Shown piece after piece: positions 1 to 12,914 of a stretch of DNA of 12,914 nucleotides. Made by a program: the position numbers and the translations under genes. Numbering within the stretch: the first letter of the stretch is position 1; every line of letters begins with the position of its first letter. A model generated the notes under the pieces. It was not told where the DNA came from. It worked only from the letters and a program-made list of their open reading frames with translations, and searched no databases. Location of the stretch: the NCBI GenBank assembly GCA_964342815.1, contig CAYFHS010000052.1, positions 1-12,914 of the forward strand, in the 5' to 3' direction. Origin of the DNA: an uncultured archaeon (lineage in GTDB: Archaea; Thermoplasmatota; Penumbrarchaeia; JASLWR01).

Positions 1-18
1 CGAGGATGCATCTAATTT

Positions 19-83
19 GCCAGGTGGTAACCTGTCAAACCGTAACTTGGCAAGCTGTTACCTGCCATAGTTCGCGGAATCGC
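19..83 (+). repeat. Left copy of a 65-bp inverted repeat (partner 12850-12914)
   Basis: 19-83 is the reverse complement of 12850-12914 at 61/65 positions. 19-55 vs 12878-12914 is a perfect 37-nt match. Mismatches are at 56, 65, 74 and 78. Confidence 0.97.
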
Positions 84-310
84 AGCCTGTAGGAAACCGT
101 AAGGTTTTCGAGGGCTCAGGTGTGACCGAAGGTTGCACCCGTAGGTACATTTACCGAGGGTGTAGCAACGCCTACTTGGTGTTGCGGAACGAAGTGGACA
201 CCGGAGTGAAGTGGGAGCCTGTAGGTTTCCAAAGGAAATCGAAGGCTAAGCAATGGCCGAAGGGTTGCGTAGTGAAGCGGTAGCCCGGAGGGATCGATTC
301 CGCTTCATCG
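19..310 (+). ncRNA. Candidate structured non-coding element (RNA or ssDNA), family not recognised
   Basis: Near-continuous stems on +: 26-62, 84-116, 119-139, 141-175, 176-204, 216-247, 250-268 and 272-308. G-U wobbles favour the + strand, and there are GUAA and GAA loops. No credible ORF. Transcription is not demonstrated. Confidence 0.6.
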
Positions 311-384
311 AATAATGGAATAGAAAGGAGGACCGAGATACCTCGAGACCATAACTTAGAGAAAGGCGTTTATGATAATATATA

Positions 385-1794
385 TTACATTTCGAGTTCT
401 TCCAGAACCTTTTCCTTCGTTTTCTTCGCCGCCTCATTCTCCGGATTGATCTCCAAGACCTTTTCGATACAGGAAAGTTTCTCCTCCAGGTTTCCCAGCT
501 TACCAAGAGCGATCCCCTTGTTGAACCAGGCCTTTTCGTGAACAGGGTCTAGACCCAGGGCCTCGTCGTAGCACGCCACTGCTTCACGAAAATTCCCCAT
601 GTGGCGCCCGTACAGGTTCCCTTTCTGGAACCATATATCGGGATTTTCATCGAGGTCCAGAGCCTGATTGAAGAATTCTGTTGCCATATCGGGATCCTTA
701 AGATAGTTTGCGTGGATCTTACCAAGTTCAAGCAGTATCTTAGCGTTTTCCGGTTCGAGTTTCAGGGCATTGTTCAGGGATACCAGAGCCTCGTCGTAGT
801 CCTGGAATTCATTACTTAACAGTATGCCTTTTTCAAGCCATCCAATTGCCAAGTGGCGGTTGAGCTTCGTCAGCTCGTTGAAACAAGCCAGCGCCTCCTT
901 GTGCCTCTCGAAATGTTCGGACAGCATCATGGCCTTGTTGAACCAGGCTTCCTGATAATTTTCCTCGTTTTTAATGGCAAGGTCCCAGAATTCCAGGGCC
1001 TTTGGGTACTTTGATCGAGCATTGTAAATATTTCCCAGATAGAAATAGGATTGCGCAAGATCCTCCTGAAGTTCCACGGTCCTAAGAAAACATTCTTCCG
1101 CTTCGTGGAGAATATCTATATTGAAAAGGGCCACTCCCTTGTAGAACAGGGCATCGAGCAGATCTTCTTTCTGGTATAAGGCTGCATTGAAACACATGAT
1201 GGCTTCGTCATTCTGCTCCAGCTTGAAATAGGCAAGCCCCTTTCCCGAGAAAGCACGGTAGTTGTTCTCGTTTATCTTCAGTGCCTCGTCGTAGCATTGG
1301 ATGGCTTCTTCATACAGCTCAAGTTTCAGTAGGGCGTTGCCCTTGTTCACAAAAGCCTGTTCGAATTTCGGATGCAGCACCAGAGCCTGCTCGAAGTCCT
1401 CCAGAGCCTGCTCGAACTTTTCTTGAAAATAATAATTGCAGCCCCTGTTGTTGTAAGTGTTCTCATTGTTCGGATTTATCTCCATTGCCCGGTTATAACA
1501 TATGATGGAGTTATCATAATCTTCTAGAAGAGAGTGGATGTTTCCCTTGTTGTACCACGCATCTTCAATGTCATCGAAAAGAGCACAGGCGTCCTCAAGA
1601 CATTCCATGGCTTTGTCATAGTTACCGATCTCTTTCAGTACGGAGGCCTTTCTTGTATTGGCTATGTACAGCTCATTATCATTCGACTTGCCGCTCTGAA
1701 GAACTATGTTGTAGAAAGAAACTGCATCTCTGAATTCGTCTTTGCTCCAGGCCACATCACCTAGGTGAATCTGTTGATCAAGATCCTCTATCAC
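385..1794 (-). CDS. Tetratricopeptide-repeat protein (about 13 tandem TPRs, no catalytic domain seen)
   Basis: 469-aa ORF of 34-aa repeats such as AWYNKGNIHSLLEDYDNSIICYNRAMEINP and AFVNKGNALLKLELYEEAIQCYDEALKINE. GTG start with GGAGGA at 1801-1806 (minus strand). Confidence 0.93.
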   Translation of the reverse strand: MIEDLDQQIHLGDVAWSKDEFRDAVSFYNIVLQSGKSNDNELYIANTRKASVLKEIGNYDKAMECLEDACALFDDIEDAWYNKGNIHSLLEDYDNSIICYNRAMEINPNNENTYNNRGCNYYFQEKFEQALEDFEQALVLHPKFEQAFVNKGNALLKLELYEEAIQCYDEALKINENNYRAFSGKGLAYFKLEQNDEAIMCFNAALYQKEDLLDALFYKGVALFNIDILHEAEECFLRTVELQEDLAQSYFYLGNIYNARSKYPKALEFWDLAIKNEENYQEAWFNKAMMLSEHFERHKEALACFNELTKLNRHLAIGWLEKGILLSNEFQDYDEALVSLNNALKLEPENAKILLELGKIHANYLKDPDMATEFFNQALDLDENPDIWFQKGNLYGRHMGNFREAVACYDEALGLDPVHEKAWFNKGIALGKLGNLEEKLSCIEKVLEINPENEAAKKTKEKVLEELEM

Positions 1795-1817
1795 GAAAAA
1801 TCCTCCGTTATACCATC

Positions 1818-1832
1818 ATTAAAACCCTTTTG
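1818..1832 (-). promoter_or_regulatory. Possible BRE/TATA box for the TPR gene
   Basis: Minus strand reads CAAAAGGG-TTTTAAT about 25 nt upstream of the GTG, resembling an archaeal BRE+TATA. Motif match only. Confidence 0.35.
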
Positions 1833-1898
1833 AATATATTCTCTTTTCGGTAATTATCATTATATGCGTTTTTTTCGAAAATAAATCTCAACCGTACT

Positions 1899-2198
1899 TC
1901 AGCCCAGAAGTACTGTGGGAGCCCCTGCGACAACCACTCCTCCATGGGCGGTTGTGTCACCCATCCTTACCGCGGGTTTCCCTCCGATGAGAACCGATGT
2001 GGATCCTTTAACGAGGTTGTCGGGCGGACCCACGCAGGTGGCCAAATCACCCATCACCGCAGCCGGCAAGTTGGATATCAAGACCGTGGGAACCCCTGGG
2101 CCCGTGATGGGACCTCCAACGTGTGGTACGGGTGGGATCCCTGGTGTCACCATTGGGCAGGTGTGCATATCCCCCAGTCTGGCTGCCGGTTGTCCCAT
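1899..2198 (-). CDS. PAAR-domain spike-tip protein (stand-alone, no toxin extension)
   Basis: Three PAAR-type motifs (PAARLGD, PAAVMGD, PAVRMGD) with His/Cys residues (HTC, PHVGG, TCVG, TAHGG) suited to the tip metal site. The start is more likely ATG 2198 (MGQP) than 2204, because GGAG at 2207-2210 is then 8 nt away rather than 2. Confidence 0.93.
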   Translation of the reverse strand: MGQPAARLGDMHTCPMVTPGIPPVPHVGGPITGPGVPTVLISNLPAAVMGDLATCVGPPDNLVKGSTSVLIGGKPAVRMGDTTAHGGVVVAGAPTVLLG

Positions 2199-2216
2199 AT
2201 TCATTTCTCCGGAATA

Positions 2217-3437
2217 TTAATTTATTTTCACCAACGCTCCTTTCACTTCGAGAATGGCCGCGGCTTCCAGCTTACCAGTAGCCCCCGATTTCAATTCCAT
2301 GGGTGCTGCGGTTTCGAATTTTCCCATGGCACCAGCTTTCAGCTCGAGATTGGCTTTGCTCTCGCAAGCGAACCCCGCCCCGGCCTTTATACTTGTGTCC
2401 ATCTTTGATTCCATATCGAGTTTTTGCCCGCTTTTCATTTTGATATCTTTTTTTGCACTGATCTCCAGCTCATCTTCTGTGGCGATGGTCATTTTCTTAG
2501 CTGAAATTATGCTTATCTCCTGGGGGCTGTCAATCTCGATATTGCCATCCTGTTTAATTCTCACAACCGCCTTGCCCGATCTTACGGTGATGGTTGCCTT
2601 ATTTTTTCCAGATGGTTTTTCGGTATCGATCTCAATTGAGGATTCTCCCCTTTCAAGCAATATTGTGGACCGATCCTCGTCTTTTGTATGGATGGATATG
2701 CTTGCCATCTTGTCACTGGATCCCAGTACCATTTCGGATATCTTCGAAGCGGTCTTGCCCAGAAGAGACGATGGCTGCGAATCGGTCTTGCCCGTTTCCA
2801 GGACCAGCTCAGCCTCTTTTTCTCCTACCCCTCGGAGTCTCATGTGGGAGACAAAATCACTCGGTTCCGAGTCTTCACCCTCTTTAGGAAGGAAATTGGT
2901 TACAATGTCCACAATGCTCTCGTCATATCTCACCACGGTACCCGCGTTGAAACGGATCAGGTAATCATGCATGAACTCTCCTTTCTTGGGCATTCCCCTG
3001 AACTCGATGATCCGGCGGTCCAGTAAGGGCTCCCCGCGTGACGTATCTTTATCACCCTGGCGATATACGTTTGGATCGAATGTAATACGATGTTCACCGT
3101 CCCCATAAAGCGGGGTTCTTTTTTCCACTGAGTAAAGCCTTCCAATGATGACAGGCATCGAAAATATACCGTTAATGAAGGATATTAGGACGAGATCATT
3201 CACGTAAGGGATAATGACCGAACCGCTGTGGGCAGTGGCTATGGGAACGTTTTCCAATTTCAATGGTGTACCTTCCTTGGTGGTCCGCCCTTTTAAAAGC
3301 ACGGAACAATCATAGTTCACCACGTCGTCTTCAGTCTCGTGCAGGTTCACGGTCTCCACCACACCCAGCTCAAGGGTGTGCAGTTTTTCTATCTCGTTCC
3401 TGGCTATCTGCCGTATCATCTCTATGAGCGATGACAT
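2217..3437 (-). CDS. Phage baseplate assembly protein V / gp5-like (VgrG C-terminal half) spike protein
   Basis: N-terminal gp5 OB-fold signature (IPYVNDLVLISFINGIFSMPVIIGRLY). C-terminal approximately 8-residue beta-helix repeats (GNIEIDSPQEISIISAKKMTIATEDELEISAKKDIKMKSG...) ending KGALVKIN. Lies directly upstream of PAAR. No gp27-like hub domain. Confidence 0.85.
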   Translation of the reverse strand: MSSLIEMIRQIARNEIEKLHTLELGVVETVNLHETEDDVVNYDCSVLLKGRTTKEGTPLKLENVPIATAHSGSVIIPYVNDLVLISFINGIFSMPVIIGRLYSVEKRTPLYGDGEHRITFDPNVYRQGDKDTSRGEPLLDRRIIEFRGMPKKGEFMHDYLIRFNAGTVVRYDESIVDIVTNFLPKEGEDSEPSDFVSHMRLRGVGEKEAELVLETGKTDSQPSSLLGKTASKISEMVLGSSDKMASISIHTKDEDRSTILLERGESSIEIDTEKPSGKNKATITVRSGKAVVRIKQDGNIEIDSPQEISIISAKKMTIATEDELEISAKKDIKMKSGQKLDMESKMDTSIKAGAGFACESKANLELKAGAMGKFETAAPMELKSGATGKLEAAAILEVKGALVKIN

Positions 3438-3524
3438 TTTTTCCCCCGAGTTTCTTTATTTTTTCTATTAGATATTTTTGGGATGCTGTCTAGATTAAAG
3501 CTAGTAAAAGGTTCCGCCGGGACA

Positions 3525-3544
3525 TTTATATATATCTTTTCTTC
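3525..3544 (-). promoter_or_regulatory. Possible BRE/TATA box for the spike-PAAR unit
   Basis: Minus strand reads GAAGAAAAG-ATATATATAAA in the 134-bp gap, about 90 nt upstream of the spike ATG. Motif match only. Confidence 0.45.
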
Positions 3545-3571
3545 GCCGAATGGATTTTAATAACAGCCGGA

Positions 3572-6500
3572 TTAGCGTTTCCTGGCGATTTTTCTAACCT
3601 TTGTAACTTTCTTCAATGTTTTTCTTGTGTTAGGGATGGATAATGGTGGCAAAGCCAGTATTTCTTCAGCAGGTCTTCCGGCAGCAGGGAGGGAAAGTGA
3701 AGGGGTATCAATGGATAATGGAGGTAATGACGGGAGAGGTGCGGGATATGTCACAATAGGATTCTCCGTTTCCGGCGCGGAGCCAACCTTAATGGCAGTT
3801 GATTCCCCTTGACCATATGCAAACTGGATGTCGTTATTGGCAGACCTATTTTCTTCCCCCTTCATACCCTTTTTTATAATGACAAACAGGACGATCCCCA
3901 CTATGACAATTCCTATAAACACTACTGATATTATCCATACCCATCTTGTAGAACTCGATCCAATTGCCGGTTCCGCGGTATTCCTGCCCCCTTCCCCCTC
4001 TACAGTTAATTTCATTGTCGTTTCGGCCGATCCACCATCCTCATCGGTGACCGTGAGAGTGATCTTGTAATCGCCGGGAGAGCTAAAAATGTGCTGGATG
4101 ATCATCCCGGTCTTGGCGATACTTTCTATCTTCCAGCGGTATTCCAATCCCTCCATGTCTCCCGCCGTGTCGGTGGAGGAGCTTCCGTCCAGGGTTATTT
4201 TTTCACCCGTTTTTACCTTCAGGGAACTTATGTTTATGACAGCCTCCGGAAGAGTGTTTTCGATACGGAGTTTCTGGGTGATTGTCCCTGTAGCCCCGTC
4301 GTCATCTCTCACAGTGAGTTTTACCTCGTGCAGCCCCGAACCAAGGAAGACGTAACCAACCGTTTTTCCCCAGAGCGTCATCTCCCGACCTATCTTCCAG
4401 GTATAGTTCAGTCCGTTAATATCCGATTTGGTGTCCGAGGTTCCGGCTGCCGAGAAAACTATATTCGTCTCTTTATCCATGTCTCTCTTTGGTGAATATG
4501 AAAATCTCGCTTCGGGAGCTCTGTTGAGAATCGTGATGGACTTTGACATTTTGTAGGTTCCATTGCCGTTGTCTCTTATGAAGAGCATTACACTGTAAGT
4601 ACCGGAATAGTTGAACACATGGGTGAATTCGGTTTCATACTGCCATCCGCTAGTATTACCATCACCGAAATCCATGAGAAATTCTAGATCGTCCTCATCG
4701 GATTTTGTATCCTCTCCTTCGGCCGTGAATTTGATTTCGTCGTCTTCATATACCGTATCCAGGGAAATATCAAAGGTCCCATCCGGAATAGGATTTTCGA
4801 TGGTGACATTTGTAACACATGTCCCGATATCCATATCCCAATCCATCACGGATAATATGGCGGAATAGTTACCCGATTGACGATATGTATGTTCAATTTC
4901 CGGGTTCTGAATCCATTCAGACTGAATTCCGTCACCGAAATCCCATCTGAATTCCAACTCATCCGTATCATTTTCAGTATCCAACCCGCTCCCAGTGAAA
5001 AGCAAAGGATAGTCCTCCACTCCAATGAGGGTGGAAGGTGCGGATGCATTGGGCCGGACATTGTATACATTGACTGTCAGGGTGTCAGTGCTCTCTGCAT
5101 TATCATTATCCCTGACATCGAGGGTCACCAAGTAATTTCCCTTGACCGGGTAAGCATGAGCGGCGATGGGAGACCCGCTCCACTGTGAGGAACCACCGTC
5201 CCCGAAGGTCCAGCGGAATTCCAATCCGGCTGCGAGATCGGAAGCCGTGTCGAAACTTTCACTGCCGTTGAACACCACTATGGAATCCTCTGCCTCTACA
5301 CGATCCGGGCCGGCATCAGCTTCAGGGGGCAGGTTCGAAACCTTTATGGGCAGGGTCCGGCTGGTGCCCTGTTTCGATATGCTATCATAGAGCCTTGCGG
5401 AAATATTGTACTGTCCGGTTGCCCCGAATGAGAAGGTCGGGCTCTTTACCTGTCCATTCATAGCAGGTGTCTCCGTATGCTCATATACACCATCGTAGTC
5501 AAGATCCCACTGGACGACGTAATTGCCGGAATCGAGGGTAGCTGATGTTGTAAGAGATGCTGTTATTTTCTCGTCCTCATGGGGTTCGGAGGGGGTAATC
5601 GTCAGTGATTGAATCACCGGGGCATCCCCCTGTGTGATGGCCAATCTCTGATCTGCATCCACATTGAACAGCTCGGAACTGCTACGGTCCGGCCACCTTA
5701 TCTCTATCCGGTCGATGGTATCAGCGTCCCCGAGACCAAAATGTACAACGGGTGAGTTCTGAAAACCATGGCCTCCCGCATCCCCACCGATGATCCGGGA
5801 CATGTGAGTATCCCCCACGCTCAGTATCACCCTTGCACCAATAGCCCCTGAATTTGCCGTTGTACCTTTCAGCTTGAGCTCGAGCCAGTTATTCGAATTC
5901 CCTTCGTTTCTGAACAAGTGAAGCTCCCGAACACCCTTGAACGGGTAGGTTCCCTCTGTAATGAGATCGAGATCACCGTCGTTGTCATAATCGCCCCAGG
6001 CAGCCCCTGTATTGGACCATACGCGTATACCAAGTGTTTCCGCCTGGTCGGTGAACGTTCTGTCGCCGTTGTTCCTCCAAAGGTAACACCAATCCCAAAA
6101 GGAATAAGTCTTAACCTGGGGTATCCATATATCCAGGTCGCCGTCGTTGTCGTAATCACCCCACGTACATCCGAAATAGTCCTCGTCCTTCCAGTAACCG
6201 TTTCCTTCATTATCGTAGATCACCGTACCGGAGGGTGTAATGGGAATTCCCACCTCGGCCCTGATATCCTGAAAGTGATAGTCAGGATATCCGGAAGAAT
6301 CGAGAAGCTGGGCGTCATCACAGAATGCTCCCCTGTTCATTCCCGAACGCTCGTCGTCCTTGTGAGCGAGATTGCTAACCCATAGGTCCATGTCAAGGTC
6401 GTTGTCGAAATCCCCCCAGGCGCAGCCGGCACTGTGACCGTAATACGGGCCGGAGTTCTCGTAATAATCGGCGTCGCCGTCTACATCCGCCCTTGCGGGA

Positions 6501-7351
6501 CCCGCGGCATTTATAAAGGTCCCGTCCCCCTGGTTCTCCCATAGATAATTGGGACAGAGGTGATAATTTCCGACGTAGATGTCCTGCCAGCCGTCGTCAT
6601 TATAATCACAAACAGCTATGGACATCGCGGCATGGGCTGGATTGTTCCGATAAACCCCGGCTTCAGATGTTACGTCGGAAAAGGTCCCATCCCCGTTGTT
6701 GTGCCATAAACGGTCCACTCCACCCCAATTTGGCCAGTTATAATTTTGCCAATCCGGTTTCTGCCAAGCCGTGCAGAAAATGTCAAGAAAACCGTCATTG
6801 TCATAGTCCACCCATGCAGCCGCTTCCGAAGGGCAGTTGTCCTTGAAGTACATCTCGTTGCTTGTCACATTTATAAAATTGTAATCCGGAGCCCCCTCAT
6901 TGCGCCAGAGAGAATCACCCTTGGCGGCGCAGAAGAAATCGAGATTACCGTCATTGTCATAATCACCCCAGATACTGTATCCCCTGCAGTCGATACCCAC
7001 CTGGTCGGTGACCTCTAAAAAATTAAAGGATGGCGGTCCCTGATTCTCGAAAAGCATTGTACCACTGCTAGTGTTCCCTCTCACCAGAAGGTCGATGTAT
7101 CCGTCGTTATTGTAATCTCCCCAGGCTAAGTTGTCTCCCCGGATTCCCGAAAGACCGGCAGCAGGCGATGCGTTAATAAACATCACAGCTTCATCGGTTC
7201 GTCGTCGCGACGCAGTTGAAATGAAGCCCATATCTTTTTCTGTTTCATCCGAAGTTCCTCTATCGGTTGATGAAGTCGGATTCCACCCGGAGAATGATTG
7301 CATAAGAAACATTGCTACGAACAATCCGATAATTATATGCTTGGTTCCCAT
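3572..7351 (-). CDS. Secreted, C-terminally anchored FG-GAP beta-propeller + ASPIC/UnbV (CRTAC1-like) + six PKD-like domain surface protein
   Basis: N-terminal signal-like hydrophobic stretch. Seven WxDYDNDGxxD-type FG-GAP motifs. ASPIC/UnbV segment (NNWLELKLKG...AIGARV...VVHFGLGDADTIDRIEIRWPD). Six Ig/PKD repeats (e.g. FRWTFGDG...HAYPVKGNYLVTLDVRD). TM helix WVWIISVVFIGIVIVGIVLFVII followed by a Pro-rich, basic tail. AGGTGG RBS upstream. Confidence 0.92.
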   Translation of the reverse strand: MGTKHIIIGLFVAMFLMQSFSGWNPTSSTDRGTSDETEKDMGFISTASRRRTDEAVMFINASPAAGLSGIRGDNLAWGDYNNDGYIDLLVRGNTSSGTMLFENQGPPSFNFLEVTDQVGIDCRGYSIWGDYDNDGNLDFFCAAKGDSLWRNEGAPDYNFINVTSNEMYFKDNCPSEAAAWVDYDNDGFLDIFCTAWQKPDWQNYNWPNWGGVDRLWHNNGDGTFSDVTSEAGVYRNNPAHAAMSIAVCDYNDDGWQDIYVGNYHLCPNYLWENQGDGTFINAAGPARADVDGDADYYENSGPYYGHSAGCAWGDFDNDLDMDLWVSNLAHKDDERSGMNRGAFCDDAQLLDSSGYPDYHFQDIRAEVGIPITPSGTVIYDNEGNGYWKDEDYFGCTWGDYDNDGDLDIWIPQVKTYSFWDWCYLWRNNGDRTFTDQAETLGIRVWSNTGAAWGDYDNDGDLDLITEGTYPFKGVRELHLFRNEGNSNNWLELKLKGTTANSGAIGARVILSVGDTHMSRIIGGDAGGHGFQNSPVVHFGLGDADTIDRIEIRWPDRSSSELFNVDADQRLAITQGDAPVIQSLTITPSEPHEDEKITASLTTSATLDSGNYVVQWDLDYDGVYEHTETPAMNGQVKSPTFSFGATGQYNISARLYDSISKQGTSRTLPIKVSNLPPEADAGPDRVEAEDSIVVFNGSESFDTASDLAAGLEFRWTFGDGGSSQWSGSPIAAHAYPVKGNYLVTLDVRDNDNAESTDTLTVNVYNVRPNASAPSTLIGVEDYPLLFTGSGLDTENDTDELEFRWDFGDGIQSEWIQNPEIEHTYRQSGNYSAILSVMDWDMDIGTCVTNVTIENPIPDGTFDISLDTVYEDDEIKFTAEGEDTKSDEDDLEFLMDFGDGNTSGWQYETEFTHVFNYSGTYSVMLFIRDNGNGTYKMSKSITILNRAPEARFSYSPKRDMDKETNIVFSAAGTSDTKSDINGLNYTWKIGREMTLWGKTVGYVFLGSGLHEVKLTVRDDDGATGTITQKLRIENTLPEAVINISSLKVKTGEKITLDGSSSTDTAGDMEGLEYRWKIESIAKTGMIIQHIFSSPGDYKITLTVTDEDGGSAETTMKLTVEGEGGRNTAEPAIGSSSTRWVWIISVVFIGIVIVGIVLFVIIKKGMKGEENRSANNDIQFAYGQGESTAIKVGSAPETENPIVTYPAPLPSLPPLSIDTPSLSLPAAGRPAEEILALPPLSIPNTRKTLKKVTKVRKIARKR

Positions 7352-7439
7352 GAATTACGCCACCTGAACTTATTGGGGAAGATAGTGGAAAAAGTTTACA
7401 GGAGGAATAAGCATAGCTGCGTATTAATAAAATTAGTGT

Positions 7440-7479
7440 AAAAAAAATAAAAAAAAAAAGAAAAAATAAAAAAAAATAA
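7440..7479 (-). terminator. Long oligo-U tract, putative archaeal terminator of the pilin gene
   Basis: 36 of 40 bases are A on + (T on -), starting 16 nt after the pilin stop codon. Archaeal termination at U-tracts is established. Confidence 0.7.
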
Positions 7480-7495
7480 TTTTACATGCGGGTAT

Positions 7496-8074
7496 TTAGG
7501 TTGTCAACTGTTGCTGGTATACAAAGGTATCCGTGAAAACGATTTCCTGGTTCGGGTCCTTTATCATGACTTCGTAGACGGCGCCTTTCTCTATGTTAAT
7601 ACCCATGCTGGCCATGGGCATATCGAAGCCGATATACTCGCCGTCGCTCCATGAGGAACCGGTAGCCTCAACGTTCTTATCCTCGATCTTCCAGTTCTTG
7701 TCGTCGTACCTATAAGACTTGTTTCTGTCGCCGCCCACAGGTGAAAGATCGTCCTCGCCCTGGTCTTCGTAGTCCCTGAAGGCGAAATCAAGTTTCTTAG
7801 GGGAGCGTCCCGTCTCGGTCACATAGAAGGAATATTTCGAGGGGTCGATGTCCACCGCTTTTACGGCGCGGATGGTGAAGAAGCATCCGTGCACCTCGTC
7901 CTTGTTCACTCCATCACTTGCCTCGAAGGCCATGATGGATACGTCACCTCCAGTGTCGGCCATGGATATGACCCACATGTACAACACACCGGCCAGAACC
8001 ACCGTTATTGCCACCATGAGGATGATAGCGATAACAGGCGAAACGGCCTCGTCGTTCTTTTTCATTCTTTTCAT
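7496..8074 (-). CDS. Archaeal type IV pilin-like protein (class III signal peptide)
   Basis: MKRMKKNDEA|VSPVIAIILMVAITVVLAGVLYMWV is the archaeal pilin/archaellin N-terminal motif cleaved by PibD/FlaK-type peptidases. GGAGGA RBS at 8082-8087 (minus strand). Confidence 0.92.
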   Translation of the reverse strand: MKRMKKNDEAVSPVIAIILMVAITVVLAGVLYMWVISMADTGGDVSIMAFEASDGVNKDEVHGCFFTIRAVKAVDIDPSKYSFYVTETGRSPKKLDFAFRDYEDQGEDDLSPVGGDRNKSYRYDDKNWKIEDKNVEATGSSWSDGEYIGFDMPMASMGINIEKGAVYEVMIKDPNQEIVFTDTFVYQQQLTT

Positions 8075-8249
8075 ATTTTTGTCCTCCTGTACGCAAACGC
8101 GTACAATTTTCTTATATGAATGCCGAGCTATATATAGTTTATTACGAGGTTCGTCACTAGGGCAACAAGAGCTGAAGTCGATTATAAAAGCCCACTAAGC
8201 TCATCTCTATTTTTGAGGCCAAAATATTTATTATCCCATTCCAACATTA
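8075..8249. promoter_or_regulatory. Divergent promoter region (pilin on -, peptidase operon on +)
   Basis: Head-to-head genes. TATA-like elements AATAAA-CTATATATA (minus strand, about 8128-8143) and AAAATATTTATTAT (plus strand, 8221-8234). Confidence 0.5.
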
Positions 8250-10136
8250 GTGCGGGTCGATATGAGTCGAAAGATACCGATTCTCCTAATGGCGATGCTG
8301 CTCTCCTTGAACGTTCTACCGGTCTTTGGCCTTGCTGTTTCCCCGGAAGAACCCACATCCGCTATTAACGAGCCGGGGGCTTCCTTGTTGGATATCGATA
8401 GTTTTTTCAGCGAGTATCATACCTACGAGACCATGGTTATGCACCTCGAAATGTTGGAGGGAAAGTTTCCAGATATCATCCGACTTTACGACCTTACCAA
8501 GAACACCGCTCTTGGACGAACCTACCAGGGACGTTCCGTTTGGGCCGTGAAAATAAGCAGTGGCGTTGGCGAAGAGGCTGATTACTACGACGATCCCGCG
8601 AAGCCGAACGTGTTGATATTCGGGGCCCATCATGGGAGAGAATGGATGAGCTATGAAGTATGTATCTATACTGTGTTCTATCTAGCATATAATTACGGTA
8701 GGAAAAACGTGGATGATGACGGTGATTCTTTAGTGAATGAGGACCTCTTTGACGGCCTGGATAACGATAATGATGGTGAGATTGACGAGGACCCTTCTCA
8801 GGGTAGAGTGAACTATCTGGTTGAGAACAGGGAGATATGGGTAATTCCCATGTTAAATCCCGATGGGGTCGCATACGACCACACGATTTCTAGGGCAGGG
8901 TCCGGCGGCGGTTGGCGGAAAAACCTGCGTAACAACATTCCCCCGCTCACAGATGAGTTCGATCCCGATAATGACGGTGTGGACCTTAACAGGAACTATC
9001 CCTATATGTGGTGGGCTAACCGAAAGGGAAGCGTTATCAATCCCGATGGAGTGGTAATGGCTGTGGATTCGGCAAATCCCTCTTCAGATGTTTATAGAGG
9101 ACCCCCTGACGGTGAGAACCAGGATGGTGATTCTGGTAACATGGGATTGATCCCCCGGGTCGATGAGGATCCGGTGGATGGTGTTGATAACGACGGTGAT
9201 GGAAAGTTGGATGAGGACCGGGACGGGGGTTTTTCCGAACCAGAAACCCAGGCTATAGGAGCTCTAGTAAAGACCTTCGATGACCAGCCCGATACAGGGA
9301 ATATACCTTTTGTCACATCGATCTCATATCACAGTGTTGCCGGCCTCGTTTTATGGCCGTGGGGTTTTTCTAGAAGGACGACTCCACACGATTCTCTTTT
9401 CAAGGATATCGGAAACCGATTGGCAGTAGCTACCGGGTACCGCGGCATGCAGGCCACTGGCCTATATCCCGCCTCGGGAGACAGTGAGGATTGGCTGTAC
9501 GGGTCGGGGAACGTTCTTGCATTTACCATCGAATTGGACGGGCCCGACGGGGGCTTTCATCCCGCCACGGAGCACATAGTTCCTATCTGCCGTAAATCTC
9601 TTGCCGCCGATCTCGGTCTCTTTGACCTTTCCGACAAGATCGAAGTGGCAAAACAGTATCATCTTACTGTGGAGCAGTCCGTTGTGGGCATCGATGTGGC
9701 AAATATGCAGACGGTTGTAAAATCGAATGAAGATATTGTTATTCAGGCGGATATACTTAATGAGGACAAGATGGTACCTGATTCACTGATACTCCATTAC
9801 AGCGAGAACGGGAATCAATACCTGGAATCTACAATGGTTTTCGACACGTCATCAGGATATTACAGTACAACCATTAGGGACATACCTCCCGGGACGACCC
9901 TGAGATATTATATCGCCGTTCGCGATGTTAGCGGGATAACTGTGTATGCACCGGATTACGGATCTTATGATCCATTAAGCCTGGACATAAGCACCGAATC
10001 AGGCCTTTCCACTTTGGAAAATATTATAATGGTCATAATGATGTTCGTTATATTACTGGTGGTTTGGGGTGGATTCGCGGGTCTAATTTTAATGGCGTTC
10101 AAGGCGGAAAAGAGGAAAAACAAGATTGCTACCTGA
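8250..10136 (+). CDS. Membrane-anchored M14 zinc carboxypeptidase (carboxypeptidase T-like) with Ca-binding-type inserts, Ig-like domain and C-terminal TM
   Basis: Motifs GAHHGREW (HxxE), NPDG, WRKN, GVDLNRNY, FSEPETQA, SYHS, YPASGDSEDW and FTIEL. Signal peptide at the N-terminus and hydrophobic helix plus basic tail at the C-terminus. The start may be ATG 8262. Confidence 0.93.
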   Translation: MRVDMSRKIPILLMAMLLSLNVLPVFGLAVSPEEPTSAINEPGASLLDIDSFFSEYHTYETMVMHLEMLEGKFPDIIRLYDLTKNTALGRTYQGRSVWAVKISSGVGEEADYYDDPAKPNVLIFGAHHGREWMSYEVCIYTVFYLAYNYGRKNVDDDGDSLVNEDLFDGLDNDNDGEIDEDPSQGRVNYLVENREIWVIPMLNPDGVAYDHTISRAGSGGGWRKNLRNNIPPLTDEFDPDNDGVDLNRNYPYMWWANRKGSVINPDGVVMAVDSANPSSDVYRGPPDGENQDGDSGNMGLIPRVDEDPVDGVDNDGDGKLDEDRDGGFSEPETQAIGALVKTFDDQPDTGNIPFVTSISYHSVAGLVLWPWGFSRRTTPHDSLFKDIGNRLAVATGYRGMQATGLYPASGDSEDWLYGSGNVLAFTIELDGPDGGFHPATEHIVPICRKSLAADLGLFDLSDKIEVAKQYHLTVEQSVVGIDVANMQTVVKSNEDIVIQADILNEDKMVPDSLILHYSENGNQYLESTMVFDTSSGYYSTTIRDIPPGTTLRYYIAVRDVSGITVYAPDYGSYDPLSLDISTESGLSTLENIIMVIMMFVILLVVWGGFAGLILMAFKAEKRKNKIAT

Positions 10137-10173
10137 AGGTACAGGGACTTTCTGAAGAAAGGAGAAATCGGTC

Positions 10174-11757
10174 ATGGAAAAAAAGGGCGGGAAAGAACAG
10201 TTCACATCACGTTGGGGACTGGTCCTGGCCGCATTGGGTGCGGCGGTGGGAACAGGTAATATTTGGCGTTTTCCAAAAGAGGTGGCATCAAATGGCGGTT
10301 CGGCATTCATCCTGATATACATACTGTTCCTCTTCTCCTGGTCCATTCCATTGTTGATCGCCGAGTTTGCCATAGGTAAGAAGACCCGTATGGGCACCAT
10401 CGGCGCGTTCAAGAAGATCCTCGGCAAGAAATACCTGTGGATGGGCGTATGGATGATGCTTGTCTCAGCAGCCATCAATTTCTATTATGCCGTGGTCATG
10501 GGTTGGACCGTGAGATATTTCTGGGTGGCACTTTCGGGGGGTATCACAAGCAAGGTTGATACGTTCCAATTGTGGGATTCCTTCATTTCCTCGTGGCATC
10601 TGGTCATATTCTTCCAAGTTATATCGCTGGCGGCCGGTCTGATAATCGTGTATTACGGCGTGGCCAAGGGTATCGAGAAAGCCACAAAGTTCATGATCCC
10701 GGCACTTTTCCTGCTCTTGGTGGGAGCCATGTTGTGGTCTCTAACTCTACCTCGTGCATATCAGGGGCTTCGCTTCATGTTCTGGGCGGACTGGAGCGCA
10801 CTTGGCAGCGGGGAAACGTGGATCCGCGCCCTTGCCCAGAGCGCATGGTCATGTTCGGCAGGGATGGGGATGGGCATCACTTATGCGGTCTACATGTCAA
10901 AAAAAGAGGATATTGCATTGAATAGTTTTTTGACAGGATTCGGGGACAGTGCCATTGCCCTGGTGGCAGGAATTGCAGTCATATGTACTGTATTCGCCTC
11001 TGCGAACAGCTATGAAGCTGCTGAGGGGTATCTAGCCGAGGGTGGTACCGCATTAACTTTCATTTACCTTACCAACCTCTTTGCGAAGATGCCTCTGGGC
11101 TGGCTCATTGCCCCTATGTTCTTTCTGGCAATGGCCTTTGCAGCTCTCACCTCGTTGATCTCCGGGATGGAAATTTCAGCGAGAAATCTCATAGATTTCG
11201 GTTGGACCAGGAAAAAGTCCGTGATAGTTGTAACCGTGGTTACCTTTTTACTGGGTATTCCCTCTGCTGCAATCGTGCTTCACCTAAATGGCGCCCCGGT
11301 CACAGCATTCCTTGATAATCAGGACCTTGTGTGGGGAACCGGGCTCATCGTGAGCGGCTTCTTCGTGGCGTTCTCGATATGGAAATACGGAACATCCCGG
11401 TTCAGAAGGGAGTTCATCAATACCAAATGGAACGACCTCAGGATCGGTAAGTGGTGGGATTATATCATCAAATACCTTTTTCCCATTCAATTCATCGCAC
11501 TTTTTATATGGGCTTTCTATGATATATGGACTGAAAATAACCCAGAGTGGTGGCATGAGGGACATTGGGGGGTTATCATACTATTGGTCGAATGGGCCGT
11601 GGTCATGGTGATAGCAATACTTCTCAACACGAAACTGGGTAAAAAGTTCGACGAAGTGGAAGCCGGGAGGAAGAAGGGCAACGACGCCGAAGCTGGGTTG
11701 GATGGGCTTGTAGTGGAACCCATACCCACTTACGAGATCATCGATTTCGGTGAATAG
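10174..11757 (+). CDS. Sodium-dependent transporter, neurotransmitter:sodium symporter (NSS/SNF; LeuT/MhsT-like) family, probably amino-acid uptake
   Basis: TM1 signature FTSRWGLVLAALGAAVGTGNIWRFP, PLLIAEFAIGK, NFYYAVVMGW and multiple TM helices. AGGAG RBS upstream. Confidence 0.95.
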   Translation: MEKKGGKEQFTSRWGLVLAALGAAVGTGNIWRFPKEVASNGGSAFILIYILFLFSWSIPLLIAEFAIGKKTRMGTIGAFKKILGKKYLWMGVWMMLVSAAINFYYAVVMGWTVRYFWVALSGGITSKVDTFQLWDSFISSWHLVIFFQVISLAAGLIIVYYGVAKGIEKATKFMIPALFLLLVGAMLWSLTLPRAYQGLRFMFWADWSALGSGETWIRALAQSAWSCSAGMGMGITYAVYMSKKEDIALNSFLTGFGDSAIALVAGIAVICTVFASANSYEAAEGYLAEGGTALTFIYLTNLFAKMPLGWLIAPMFFLAMAFAALTSLISGMEISARNLIDFGWTRKKSVIVVTVVTFLLGIPSAAIVLHLNGAPVTAFLDNQDLVWGTGLIVSGFFVAFSIWKYGTSRFRREFINTKWNDLRIGKWWDYIIKYLFPIQFIALFIWAFYDIWTENNPEWWHEGHWGVIILLVEWAVVMVIAILLNTKLGKKFDEVEAGRKKGNDAEAGLDGLVVEPIPTYEIIDFGE

Positions 11758-11773
11758 GGGTTGGGTGATGTAA

Positions 11774-12553
11774 ATGGATGACGGATTATCAGCATGTACC
11801 TGCGTTGATGAAAATGAAGTGGTGGTGCTAAGCTCACAAAAGAACTGCCACCTCATACGCGCGGGGGATGGTAGAAAAAGGATATCTAAAATTGGTGTTT
11901 TCAATACTTCGTCGCTGGTGGGGAGAGAATACGGTGATAAGTTAAAGGTCGGACCCCATAACTTCACCATATTGAGACCAACCCTGCCCCTTCTTCACAA
12001 AGCGTTTCGCAGAAAGGCTCAGGTTATAATGCTTAAGGATGCTATGACTATCGTTGGCGAACTTGGTATAAGAAGCGGGAGCAGGGTATTGGAAGTAGGT
12101 GTGGGCTCCGGTTTCATGTCTGCGGTATTATTGTGGTTCACAGGCCCCTCGGGCGAGCTGGTTTCCTACGAGAAGAGAAGGGATTTTGCTGAAATTGCAG
12201 AAGAGAACATCAGATCGGCTGGTCTTTACCGTAACTGGAAATTGAGGGTGTGTGCCGGTGAGGATATGGATGAAAATATAAAATTCGATTGTGCGGTGGT
12301 GGATGTACCCGAGCCGTGGAATCTGATGGAGAAAGTGGGTAAGGCGTTGGTGAGGGGTGGGAAAGCCGCTTTCTACGTACCTACCTACAATCAGTTCGAG
12401 ACCTGTCTCGCTGCGTTTGTGGAGTCCGGATTATCAAGTATGGGTGCTAGAGAGGTACTTGTCCGTGACATGACCACCACCCAAGGTAGTATCAGACCCT
12501 GCTTCGACATGCTGGGTCATACGGGTTTCATACTGTTTGCAGGAAAGCGCTGA
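11774..12553 (+). CDS. trmI: tRNA (adenine-N1)-methyltransferase TrmI (GCD14 family)
   Basis: RKAQVIMLKD, SAM motif VLEVGVGSG, SYEKRRDFAEIAEEN, DVPEPW, YVPTYNQ and IRP...GHTGF. GGTGA RBS at about 11766-11770. Confidence 0.93.
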   Translation: MDDGLSACTCVDENEVVVLSSQKNCHLIRAGDGRKRISKIGVFNTSSLVGREYGDKLKVGPHNFTILRPTLPLLHKAFRRKAQVIMLKDAMTIVGELGIRSGSRVLEVGVGSGFMSAVLLWFTGPSGELVSYEKRRDFAEIAEENIRSAGLYRNWKLRVCAGEDMDENIKFDCAVVDVPEPWNLMEKVGKALVRGGKAAFYVPTYNQFETCLAAFVESGLSSMGAREVLVRDMTTTQGSIRPCFDMLGHTGFILFAGKR

Positions 12554-12597
12554 AAAATGAATCGATTTATAAATTTCCAGCTTTCGGTATACAATAC

Positions 12598-12914
12598 GGC
12601 GTTGGGATTTTGCGAAGATGCATGAATCGGAATCTGCCCTTTATAGGCGCCAGTATCTCTCCGATGCCCGCTACGCTCCAGTGCATCGCTGATGCAATTG
12701 CATCCTCGGCCAACTTTCGCGTTGGCCGGACCTGTAAGAACCGAGAGGTTCTGAAGGTTCAGTTGCATGATAATGCAACGGAGTGCCAACGGGAACAGGA
12801 ACGTTCACATAGGGAATGTTCCGAGTATCGGGGATGTTCCCCCCTACGGGCGATACCGTGAACTATGACAGGTAACGGCTTGCCAAGTTACGGTTTGACA
12901 GGTTACCACCTGGC
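12598..12914 (+). ncRNA. Candidate structured non-coding element related to the left-end element
   Basis: Dense stems: palindrome 12691-12704, hairpins 12707-12728, 12729-12759 (GAGA loop), 12762-12779 and 12798-12822, and a three-way junction at 12825-12856. Carries the same module as 84-144 and 216-272. Truncated by the window edge. Confidence 0.55.
12850..12914 (-). repeat. Right copy of the 65-bp inverted repeat (partner 19-83)
   Basis: Reverse complement reads GCCAGGTGGTAACCTGTCAAACCGTAACTTGGCAAGCCGTTACCTGTCATAGTTCACGGTATCGC, matching 19-83 at 61/65. It runs to the last base of the window. Confidence 0.97.

Follow-up and report, generated by a model that had tools for sequence, protein, structure and literature searches.

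The window analyzed here, by which we mean the whole stretch of 12,914 nucleotides (C52:1-12914), is an entire contig of a metagenome-assembled genome (MAG; G000) of a marine Thermoplasmatota archaeon. It carries eight open reading frames, searched here against Pfam, between two inverted arms that are each backed by a train of hairpins. Its features, with the parts of the left arm placed by aligning the copies of the repeat to which it belongs, are as follows:

1-83, + strand: left arm, formed by the right half of a nested-palindrome unit
1-41: right part of the innermost insert of that unit
42-56: right arm of inner hairpin B (CTTGGCAAG)
57-70: right arm of the outer hairpin (CCTGCCAT)
71-83: conserved tail
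84-384, + strand: ORF-free train of short hairpin modules, several with GTAG in an internal loop
385-1794, - strand: TPR-repeat protein, 469 aa, first gene of the block (TPR_1, 2.7e-67), collinear with G001:C125
1899-2204, - strand: PAAR-motif protein, 101 aa (PAAR_motif, 4.8e-26)
2217-3437, - strand: VgrG-like spike protein, 406 aa (weak Phage_base_V and DUF2345 matches)
3572-7351, - strand: FG-GAP/PKD surface protein, 1259 aa (PKD_4, FG-GAP_3, UnbV_ASPIC)
7496-8074, - strand: archaeal type IV pilin-like protein, 192 aa (Pilin_N, 3.6e-9)
8250-10136, + strand: M14 zinc carboxypeptidase, 628 aa (Peptidase_M14, 2.1e-48)
10174-11757, + strand: sodium:neurotransmitter-family symporter, 527 aa (SNF, 1.2e-58)
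11774-12553, + strand: TrmI/GCD14-type tRNA methyltransferase, 259 aa, last gene of the block (GCD14, 2.5e-20)
12554-12849, - strand: ORF-free train of hairpin modules behind the right arm
12850-12914, - strand: right arm, formed by the right half of another copy of the unit, inverted and ended by the contig end

The PAAR-motif protein is the sole PAAR match in the genome, and the spike protein and TrmI have orthologues in the congener G001 that are 88% and 79% identical, respectively. The Pfam search returned no transposase, integrase, Cas1, polymerase or reverse transcriptase among the eight frames, in agreement with the sequence-only reading, which had seen no mobility gene in the block. 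The inverted repeat described in that reading was likewise recovered: a repeat search of the window aligned 19-83 with 12850-12914 as 65-nt arms that are reverse-complementary at 61/65 positions (94%), with perfect identity between the outer 37 nt of both, and BLAST gave E-values of 3e-22 and 9e-22. Since the window spans its contig completely, it is the end of the contig and not biology that truncates the right arm, and positions 1-18, left of the left arm, are also repeat sequence, common to contigs C1, C7 and C13. An origin of the arms as tRNA-derived att sites was ruled out using ARAGORN, which found no tRNA or tmRNA in the window. A search of all Rfam families at E ≤ 1 gave no match to the arms, and its sole match was a chance PhrS hit inside a coding region.

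The DNA backing the arms had been read as structured and non-coding, and this held for both trains, which are free of ORFs and gave single-stranded DNA fold z-scores of -3.9 (1-384, left arm and train) and -2.6 (12554-12914, right arm and train). The left train is a mosaic of other dispersed repeat modules, pieces of which match C2:63868-63975 (89%) as well as C17, C15, C25 and C35, and nothing of it is present at the orthologous site of G001. The right train matches C36:17981-18106 at 95-99% with a 65-nt gap, as a two-hairpin insert (approximately 12698-12762) is absent from this paralogous copy; the same 65 nt are skipped by a Logan contig, which passes from 12697 directly to 12763.

Alignment of the copies reveals a nested palindrome in which an outer 9-bp hairpin (CATGACAGG / CCTGTCAT) carries in its apical loop a 152-nt insert made of further hairpins. 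The complete unit measures about 190 nt (more than 300 nt with its upstream modules) and folds strongly, at -102 kcal/mol with z = -6.8. This nested structure explains the make-up of the arm, whose perfect 37-nt part would be a young inner insert and whose remaining 28 nt, with four mismatches, would be the older outer arm and tail. Copies of the repeat, all of them intergenic, were found at no fewer than seven loci of G000 (C1, C7, C13, C49, the end of C17, the end of C79 and both ends of C52); those inside C7, C13 and C49 each stand alone as a small unit in an ordinary spacer between genes, and the copy on C1 has no large cargo downstream. The outer hairpin is filled at C1 and C7 and empty at C6, C9 and C35, and the site orthologous to the filled C7 copy is empty in G001 (C80). 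The insert is the sole difference between filled and empty sites, and no target duplication accompanies it. A search for outer arms that allowed mismatches returned empty pairs spaced by about 16 nt and filled pairs spaced by about 168 nt; an additional pair on C41, 2.2 kb apart and with degenerate arms, is probably a chance occurrence.

The repeat family is present in G001 and G003, where copies of the unit have other loop contents, and a search of 38 other relatives did not find it; each repeat-bearing genome gave at least 20 module matches. The same side of the unit adjoins a gene start at 8 of 10 loci. The copies were also considered as promoter or 5' UTR sequence common to a family of paralogous genes, which was ruled out since the adjoining genes are unrelated.

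The position of these copies at both contig ends was examined against the way in which the sequence was assembled, namely by a short-read de Bruijn assembly at k=55. Window positions 1-55 are identical to C1:176-230 and position 56 differs, while at the other end 12860-12914, read as its reverse complement, matches C1:194-248 throughout and the 56th base differs; 56-nt queries from either end of the contig are unique in the assembly. Exact sharing of 55 nt with another place was found at 81 of the 232 contig ends, with nine further ends sharing 54 nt. This observation is further strengthened by the Logan k=31 contigs of three runs, used as independent assemblies, which stop at window positions 26 and 12889; copy-specific bases begin at 56 and 12859, in each case exactly 30 nt further in. 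Read as summed contig depths, which are indicative and are not copy numbers, the end bins stand at 1.6-3.5x the interior; on the same measure the interior reaches 7.5-8.1 vs 8.27 for an 11.4-kb contig elsewhere on the chromosome. In the RNA runs X12-X14, only 6-7% of the sampled words were present. The features of the contig ends are those of the repeat-induced breaks of SPAdes-type de Bruijn assemblies with a final k of 55: there, too, the overlap between a contig end and another path of the graph is exactly k bases long, the break lies in multicopy sequence and the signature recurs across the assembly; no difference from such breaks was noted for this contig, and the record of G001 bears SPAdes-style NODE naming.

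The contigs that meet these ends are not the same on the two sides. The last 55 nt of C79 equal C1:110-164, and its end carries the left half of the left-end unit, whereas the last 55 nt of C23 equal C1:1-55, and its end carries the left half of the right-end unit together with the upstream modules. In the congener G001, window positions 384-12642 align to C125 in one collinear 12.3-kb HSP at 79.7% identity, the block is embedded in a 91-kb contig, and its flanks match C79/C74 of G000 on the left and C23 on the right, with no match to the arms or the unit at the edges of the block. The left-hand spacer of G001 holds about 95 nt of unrelated sequence vs about 560 nt in G000 and does not represent a clean empty site. 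The block is split in G003, with TrmI on its C2 and the spike gene on its C49, and a contig scan with TrmI returned the G001 record only, with no wider synteny series. Based on the synteny with G001 and the k-mer overlaps, rather than on reads spanning the repeats, the chromosomal order would be C79, unit, C52, inverted unit and the reverse of C23; the assembly graph alone is compatible with either pairing of arms and neighbors. The two copies would be inverted because each sits upstream of an outward-facing neighbor gene, and the inverted arrangement is one of two equally likely outcomes.

Taken together, we consider it highly probable that C52 is bracketed by an inverted repeat only through assembly breaks in two copies of a multicopy repeat, and that the block between them is ordinary, vertically inherited chromosome. 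The k=55 assembly would have been blocked at both copies, so that the contig starts and stops inside them, and the bracketing is apparent because assembly stopped inside two multicopy intergenic repeats. The sequence-only reading had offered three options and leaned toward two of them, a dispersed repeat at which the assembly broke or the two arms of one palindrome. The first is upheld by the copies at seven or more loci, the exact 55-nt overlaps and the 1.6-3.5x depth of the end bins; the second is not supported, as the ends lead to C79 and C23 and not to each other. The 65-mer, whose copies it had proposed to count in the parent assembly, proved multicopy.

Several other explanations were weighed against assembly breaks in a multicopy repeat. 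The units could be cis-regulatory or RNA elements of the host that lie upstream of particular genes, serve the outward-facing neighbors and are not mobile. Such a role would fit the constant orientation toward gene starts (8/10 loci), the conserved upstream module (TTGTCAATGGTG...) that G000 and G001 both retain at the site on the C23 side, the strong fold, and one compensatory pair in inner hairpin B of the C13 copy, where C-G is replaced by T-A. We nevertheless regard it as unlikely, since the adjoining genes are functionally unrelated, orthologous sites of congeners differ in content and Rfam offers no match, and since some copies in G000 are 100% identical over at least 55 nt vs about 80% for orthologous genes of G000 and G001, which indicates recent spread or conversion and not conservation.

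A further explanation holds that the 12.9-kb block is an invertible segment, in which recombination between the two inverted copies flips the block and adds ambiguity to the graph. Both copies equal the C1 copy over at least 55 assembled nt and probably over 121-248 nt, and inverted repeats of such size can support homologous recombination. Both orientations are seen nowhere, however; the multicopy repeat alone explains the break, and the single orientation found in G001 is that of the simplest join. The one odd Logan joint that might speak for inversion (92->12864) has a 29-nt shorter side, within the range of the repeat-artefact warning. Flipping of the block is very unlikely. The 92->12864 joint occurs in X1 and X2 with its shorter side under the reliability limit of the tool; it most likely represents another copy of the repeat and was set aside as evidence for a circle or an inversion.

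The sequence-only reading had also proposed a non-autonomous cargo transposon, with the 65-nt arms as terminal inverted repeats (TIRs) and the eight genes moved by a transposase acting in trans. The inverted arms are real, no mobility gene lies between them and their repeat family behaves as mobile DNA, but the congener G001 has the same block with the same flanking genes and without the arms, a synteny in a relative that the sequence-only reading had itself given as grounds for refuting a mobile element. Moreover, the arms are not termini: they are halves of small self-contained units that run more than 100 nt outward onto C79 or C23, copies elsewhere stand alone (C7, C13, C49) or without large downstream cargo (C1), and no pair of arms 0.5-3 kb apart encloses a candidate autonomous element. 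A transposon of this kind is highly improbable. Weakest of all, and given almost no credence, is a replicon apart from the chromosome, whether a linear molecule (plasmid or virus) with inverted terminal repeats (ITRs) or a circle with a palindromic junction: the window is a complete contig ending in inverted repeats, which is the criterion by which virus-completeness tools recognize ITR genomes, yet its terminal 55-mers branch into the copy inside the 343-kb chromosomal contig C1, it lacks the direct terminal overlap expected of a circle assembled by a de Bruijn graph, in G001 the block lies within a chromosomal contig of 91 kb, the depth of the block is the same as for other chromosomal contigs, and it carries the housekeeping TrmI and no replication or structural genes. 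With ITR/TIR-bounded elements in general (cargo and composite transposons, casposons, ITR plasmids and viruses), the sole likeness is a block between inverted copies; here the block is without transposase, casposase or polymerase, the repeat units extend past it, and it is syntenic and arm-free in G001.

While the block itself thus appears to be resident chromosome that ends in repeats through assembly breaks, the inner module of the unit may be mobile, as the pattern of presence and absence suggests, although deletion or gene conversion could produce the same pattern. The module may spread as non-autonomous DNA that enters hairpin loops without target duplication, and it would then resemble REP/BIME elements or MITEs mobilized in trans by an enzyme. 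Y1_Tnp (PF01797) and TnpB (PF07282) had no match in G000, which is 88.9% complete. Y1 genes do occur in G001 and G003, but they are IS200-like, end in unrelated hairpins of their own (CCAGC...GCTGG type) and are not flanked by the arm repeat family. Both enzymes were accordingly rejected as partners, being missing from G000 and, for Y1 in G001 and G003, having different ends. Across the four genomes, G002 has neither a Y1 match nor the repeats, G001 and G003 have both and G000 has the repeats only, a pattern too thin to count. The outer-arm search revealed no related autonomous element, in that no arm pair 0.5-3 kb apart enclosed a candidate.

REP, BIME and REPIN sequences are bacterial and are mobilized by RAYT tyrosine transposases (PMC2817692, PMC3116915, PMC3733652), and a REP is defined by GTAG (or CGTC) as a tag left unpaired on one side of its palindrome (PMC3733652). 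The units described here resemble them as short extragenic palindromes in many copies and clustered mosaic arrays that vary between close relatives and fold on one strand, and several of the backing hairpins contain GTAG (84-384 and the reverse strand of 12554-12849). This GTAG may or may not correspond to the REP tag: in the backing hairpins it lies in an internal loop rather than at an unpaired end, and neither the 65-nt arm nor its outer hairpin contains it. In addition, these units belong to an archaeon, reach a much greater length (about 190 nt), are nested and receive inserts in apical loops, and no RAYT/Y1 gene was found in G000, the Y1 genes of G001 and G003 being unflanked by these repeats. 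The units share with MITEs and with PATEs, the palindrome-associated transposable elements of haloarchaea (PMC3119063), a non-coding, multicopy, intergenic and hairpin-forming nature and differences in presence between close genomes. They differ in that comparison of filled with empty sites gave no target-site duplication (even though, for comparison with MITEs, the outer hairpin supplies 9-bp inverted ends), that no autonomous IS with the same ends was found and that G000 has no TnpB or IS200/IS605 partner. There is an outside chance that the nested units record a transposition or recombination activity undescribed in archaea, with an enzyme outside the known Y1 and TnpB families that would insert hairpin DNA precisely in the apical loop of a hairpin already in place, with no target duplication, combined with an invertible 12.9-kb PAAR/VgrG-adhesin block.

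Complete linear elements or transposons are recognized by the hallmark of an inverted repeat at each end of a short-read contig, and C52 serves as a caution, as its arms are simply two points where the graph entered a multicopy repeat. A terminal overlap of exactly k, combined with synteny in a relative, offers a quick way to settle such cases. Beyond the assembly, the arms provide a well-resolved example of a hairpin repeat, with orthologous and paralogous empty sites and a loop insert without duplication. Such hairpin repeats fragment the MAG and remodel the promoter-proximal spacers between sister species.

The 65-nt inverted repeat at 19-83 and 12850-12914 that a sequence-only reading had noted was confirmed (94% complementary; BLAST E ~1e-22), and the outer 37 nt of the two arms are identical. 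The structured non-coding DNA reported behind the arms was likewise recovered: about 300 nt inward of both is ORF-free and folds better than shuffled controls, with ssDNA fold z-scores, arm included, of -3.9 for 1-384 and -2.6 for 12554-12914. Pfam searches on all eight ORFs (TPR, PAAR, VgrG-like spike, FG-GAP/PKD surface protein, archaeal pilin, M14 carboxypeptidase, SNF symporter and TrmI/GCD14) returned no mobility or replication domain, in agreement with the claim that the block lacks a mobility gene.

Two features of the gene block were observed separately. Positions 1899-3437 (reverse strand) hold the only PAAR-motif gene of the genome under study, G000, together with a VgrG-like spike gene; the pair adjoins the TPR protein gene and lies downstream of the genes for the pilin and the 1259-aa FG-GAP/PKD surface protein. 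Because the sole phage-sheath (PF04984) match in G000 sits on another contig (C10:47751-48230), this may be an archaeal contractile-injection spike pair encoded away from the sheath cluster. In 4/4 runs the FG-GAP repeat region (5600-6470) shows a 3-10 fold rise in summed contig depth, with many short joints. This reflects conserved repeat motifs common to other organisms or paralogues and is no property of the locus.

Among the origins proposed for the arms, a break of the assembly at a dispersed multicopy repeat is supported by the end overlaps, the many copies and the depth of the end bins. In a genome search the window corresponded to G000:C52:1-12914, the full length of one contig in a bin of 116 contigs and 4.35 Mb. 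The first 55 nt of this contig recur exactly at C1:176-230, and extending the query to 56 nt already makes it unique; reverse-complemented, the contig starts with 55 nt identical to C1:194-248 and is unique from 56. When shared-end length was determined for every contig end of the G000 assembly, 81 of 232 had exactly 55 nt in common with another place, 9 had 54 nt, and other values were few. Exact 55-nt end sharing is the signature of de Bruijn assembly with a final k of 55, and the record of the closest relative carries SPAdes-style NODE naming. In three runs the independently assembled Logan contigs (k=31) terminate at 26 and 12889; each stop lies 30 nt from the point where copy-specific sequence begins (56 and 12859). 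Summed depth in the end bins is 1.6-3.5x that of the interior, which at 7.5-8.1 (run X1) is close to the 8.27 of an 11.4-kb contig derived from a different region of the chromosome. As assembly phenomena, the ends of C52 are the standard repeat break.

Copies of the repeat lie on C1 (~60-250), C7 (~90640-90850), C13 and C49, at the ends of C17 and C79, and at both ends of C52, where the 18 nt preceding the left arm are likewise part of it; many more contigs carry sub-modules from the hairpin trains that flank it. C79 closes with 55 nt equal to C1:110-164, ending 11 nt short of the C52 start (C1:176), and C23 closes with 55 nt equal to C1:1-55, which lies upstream of the start point of reversed C52 (C1:194). 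Each arm therefore represents the right-hand half of a full unit of the nested hairpin repeat, the left-hand half having been placed on the adjoining contig by the assembly.

The possibility that the arms are terminal inverted repeats of a mobilised cargo element is not supported: comparison with the congener G001, also a Thermoplasmatota MAG, gave the outcome that the sequence-only reading had named as refuting it. Positions 384-12642 align in one 12.3-kb HSP, at 79.7% identity, to the 91-kb G001 contig C125, flanked on the left by DNA matching G000 C79 and then C74 and on the right by DNA matching C23; block and flanks are syntenic, and neither arm nor unit matched at either block edge of the G001 region. 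Synteny and k-mer overlaps, rather than spanning reads, point to C79, unit, C52, inverted unit and reverse of C23 as the most likely order in G000. The reading of the arms as two halves of one palindrome was not supported.

The inversion of the two copies tends to be set by their neighbours and not by the block. The same unit side adjoins the 5' end of an outward-pointing gene at 8/10 loci, a tendency over ten loci rather than statistical proof, and this gene-adjacent side bears upstream modules, among them TTGTCAATGGTG. The promoter-proximal units face each other because the C79 and C23 genes are both directed away from the block. Separately, several unrelated genes have in common a conserved module of ~30 nt (TTGTCAATGGTGAAAAGCTCGATAAAATG-like), which lies 40-90 nt upstream of where they start and immediately past a TATA-like TTTAAAT; it occurs at the C79 and C23 ends, C7:90455-90480, C13:8425-8450 and the right flank in G001:C125, and G001 retains it at the orthologue of the C23-side site. 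The module may represent the composite repeat's outer end, or a promoter-proximal site that these genes share.

For the full C1 copy the fold is a single nested structure (-102 kcal/mol, z = -6.8), whose layers were read by comparing unit copies in G000, G001 and G003 (same family):

Layers of the repeat unit
Outer hairpin: 9 bp, CATGACAGG(T) / (A)CCTGTCAT, followed by a conserved tail
Apical-loop content in G001: two small hairpins, GATGAATC...GATTCATC and CTTGCCAAG...CTTGGCAAG
Apical-loop content in G000: extra inserts within the small-hairpin loops, 152-nt filling in total

This anatomy explains the make-up of the arms: the perfectly matched stretch of 37 bases corresponds to the inner insert's right end, and the remaining 28, which include the four mismatches, to the older outer arm plus tail. 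Inner hairpin B of the C13 copy carries a compensatory change (C-G to T-A). Empty outer hairpins with a loop of 3-6 nt occur on G000 C6, C9 and C35 and on G001 C120, and the filled copy on G000:C7 has an empty orthologous site on G001:C80 (spacers G000:C7:90480-90860 and G001:C80:19952-20113); filled and empty hairpins differ only by the insert, with no target duplication. The same spacer holds in G001 a two-hairpin GTAG-type module, of the same family as window 84-144 in the train behind the left arm, that is missing from G000. Turnover at this single site is reciprocal, and there were therefore gains or losses in both lineages. Within the right-hand train, a 65-nt two-hairpin module (12698-12762) is absent from an otherwise 95-99% identical paralogous copy (C36:17981-18106) and is skipped in the same way by a Logan contig, another case of paralogous copies of the repeat differing by a nested insertion or deletion.

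Bacterial REP/BIME/REPIN elements (PMC2817692, PMC3116915, PMC3733652), MITEs and haloarchaeal PATEs (PMC3119063) are similar to the unit, but it lacks features that define each of these families, with no flanking RAYT gene, target duplication or related IS found. GTAG, the unpaired end tag of REP palindromes, is present in the backing hairpins within an internal loop and absent from the 65-nt arm and its outer hairpin. The unit works like these elements and is assigned to none of them.

IS200-like Y1 transposase genes were observed at G001:C65:2976-3338, G001:C158:39095-39454 and G003:C1:9184-9543, with two additional truncated copies in G001 and none detected in G000; their own conserved end hairpins are of the CCAGCTCCTTTAGGGGCTGG type. 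As to a mobilising enzyme, screens of G000 for Y1_Tnp and TnpB-type domains gave no match, the end hairpins of the G001 and G003 genes are unrelated to the repeat family, and no candidate autonomous element enclosed by an arm pair was found. The family itself is present in G000, G001 and G003 (20-21 matches each); searches of G002 (same family) and of 37 further genomes of the class and phylum did not recover it. The bracketing of the gene block is no feature of the organism; the arms belong to a lineage-specific family of hairpin repeats and are ordinary members of it.
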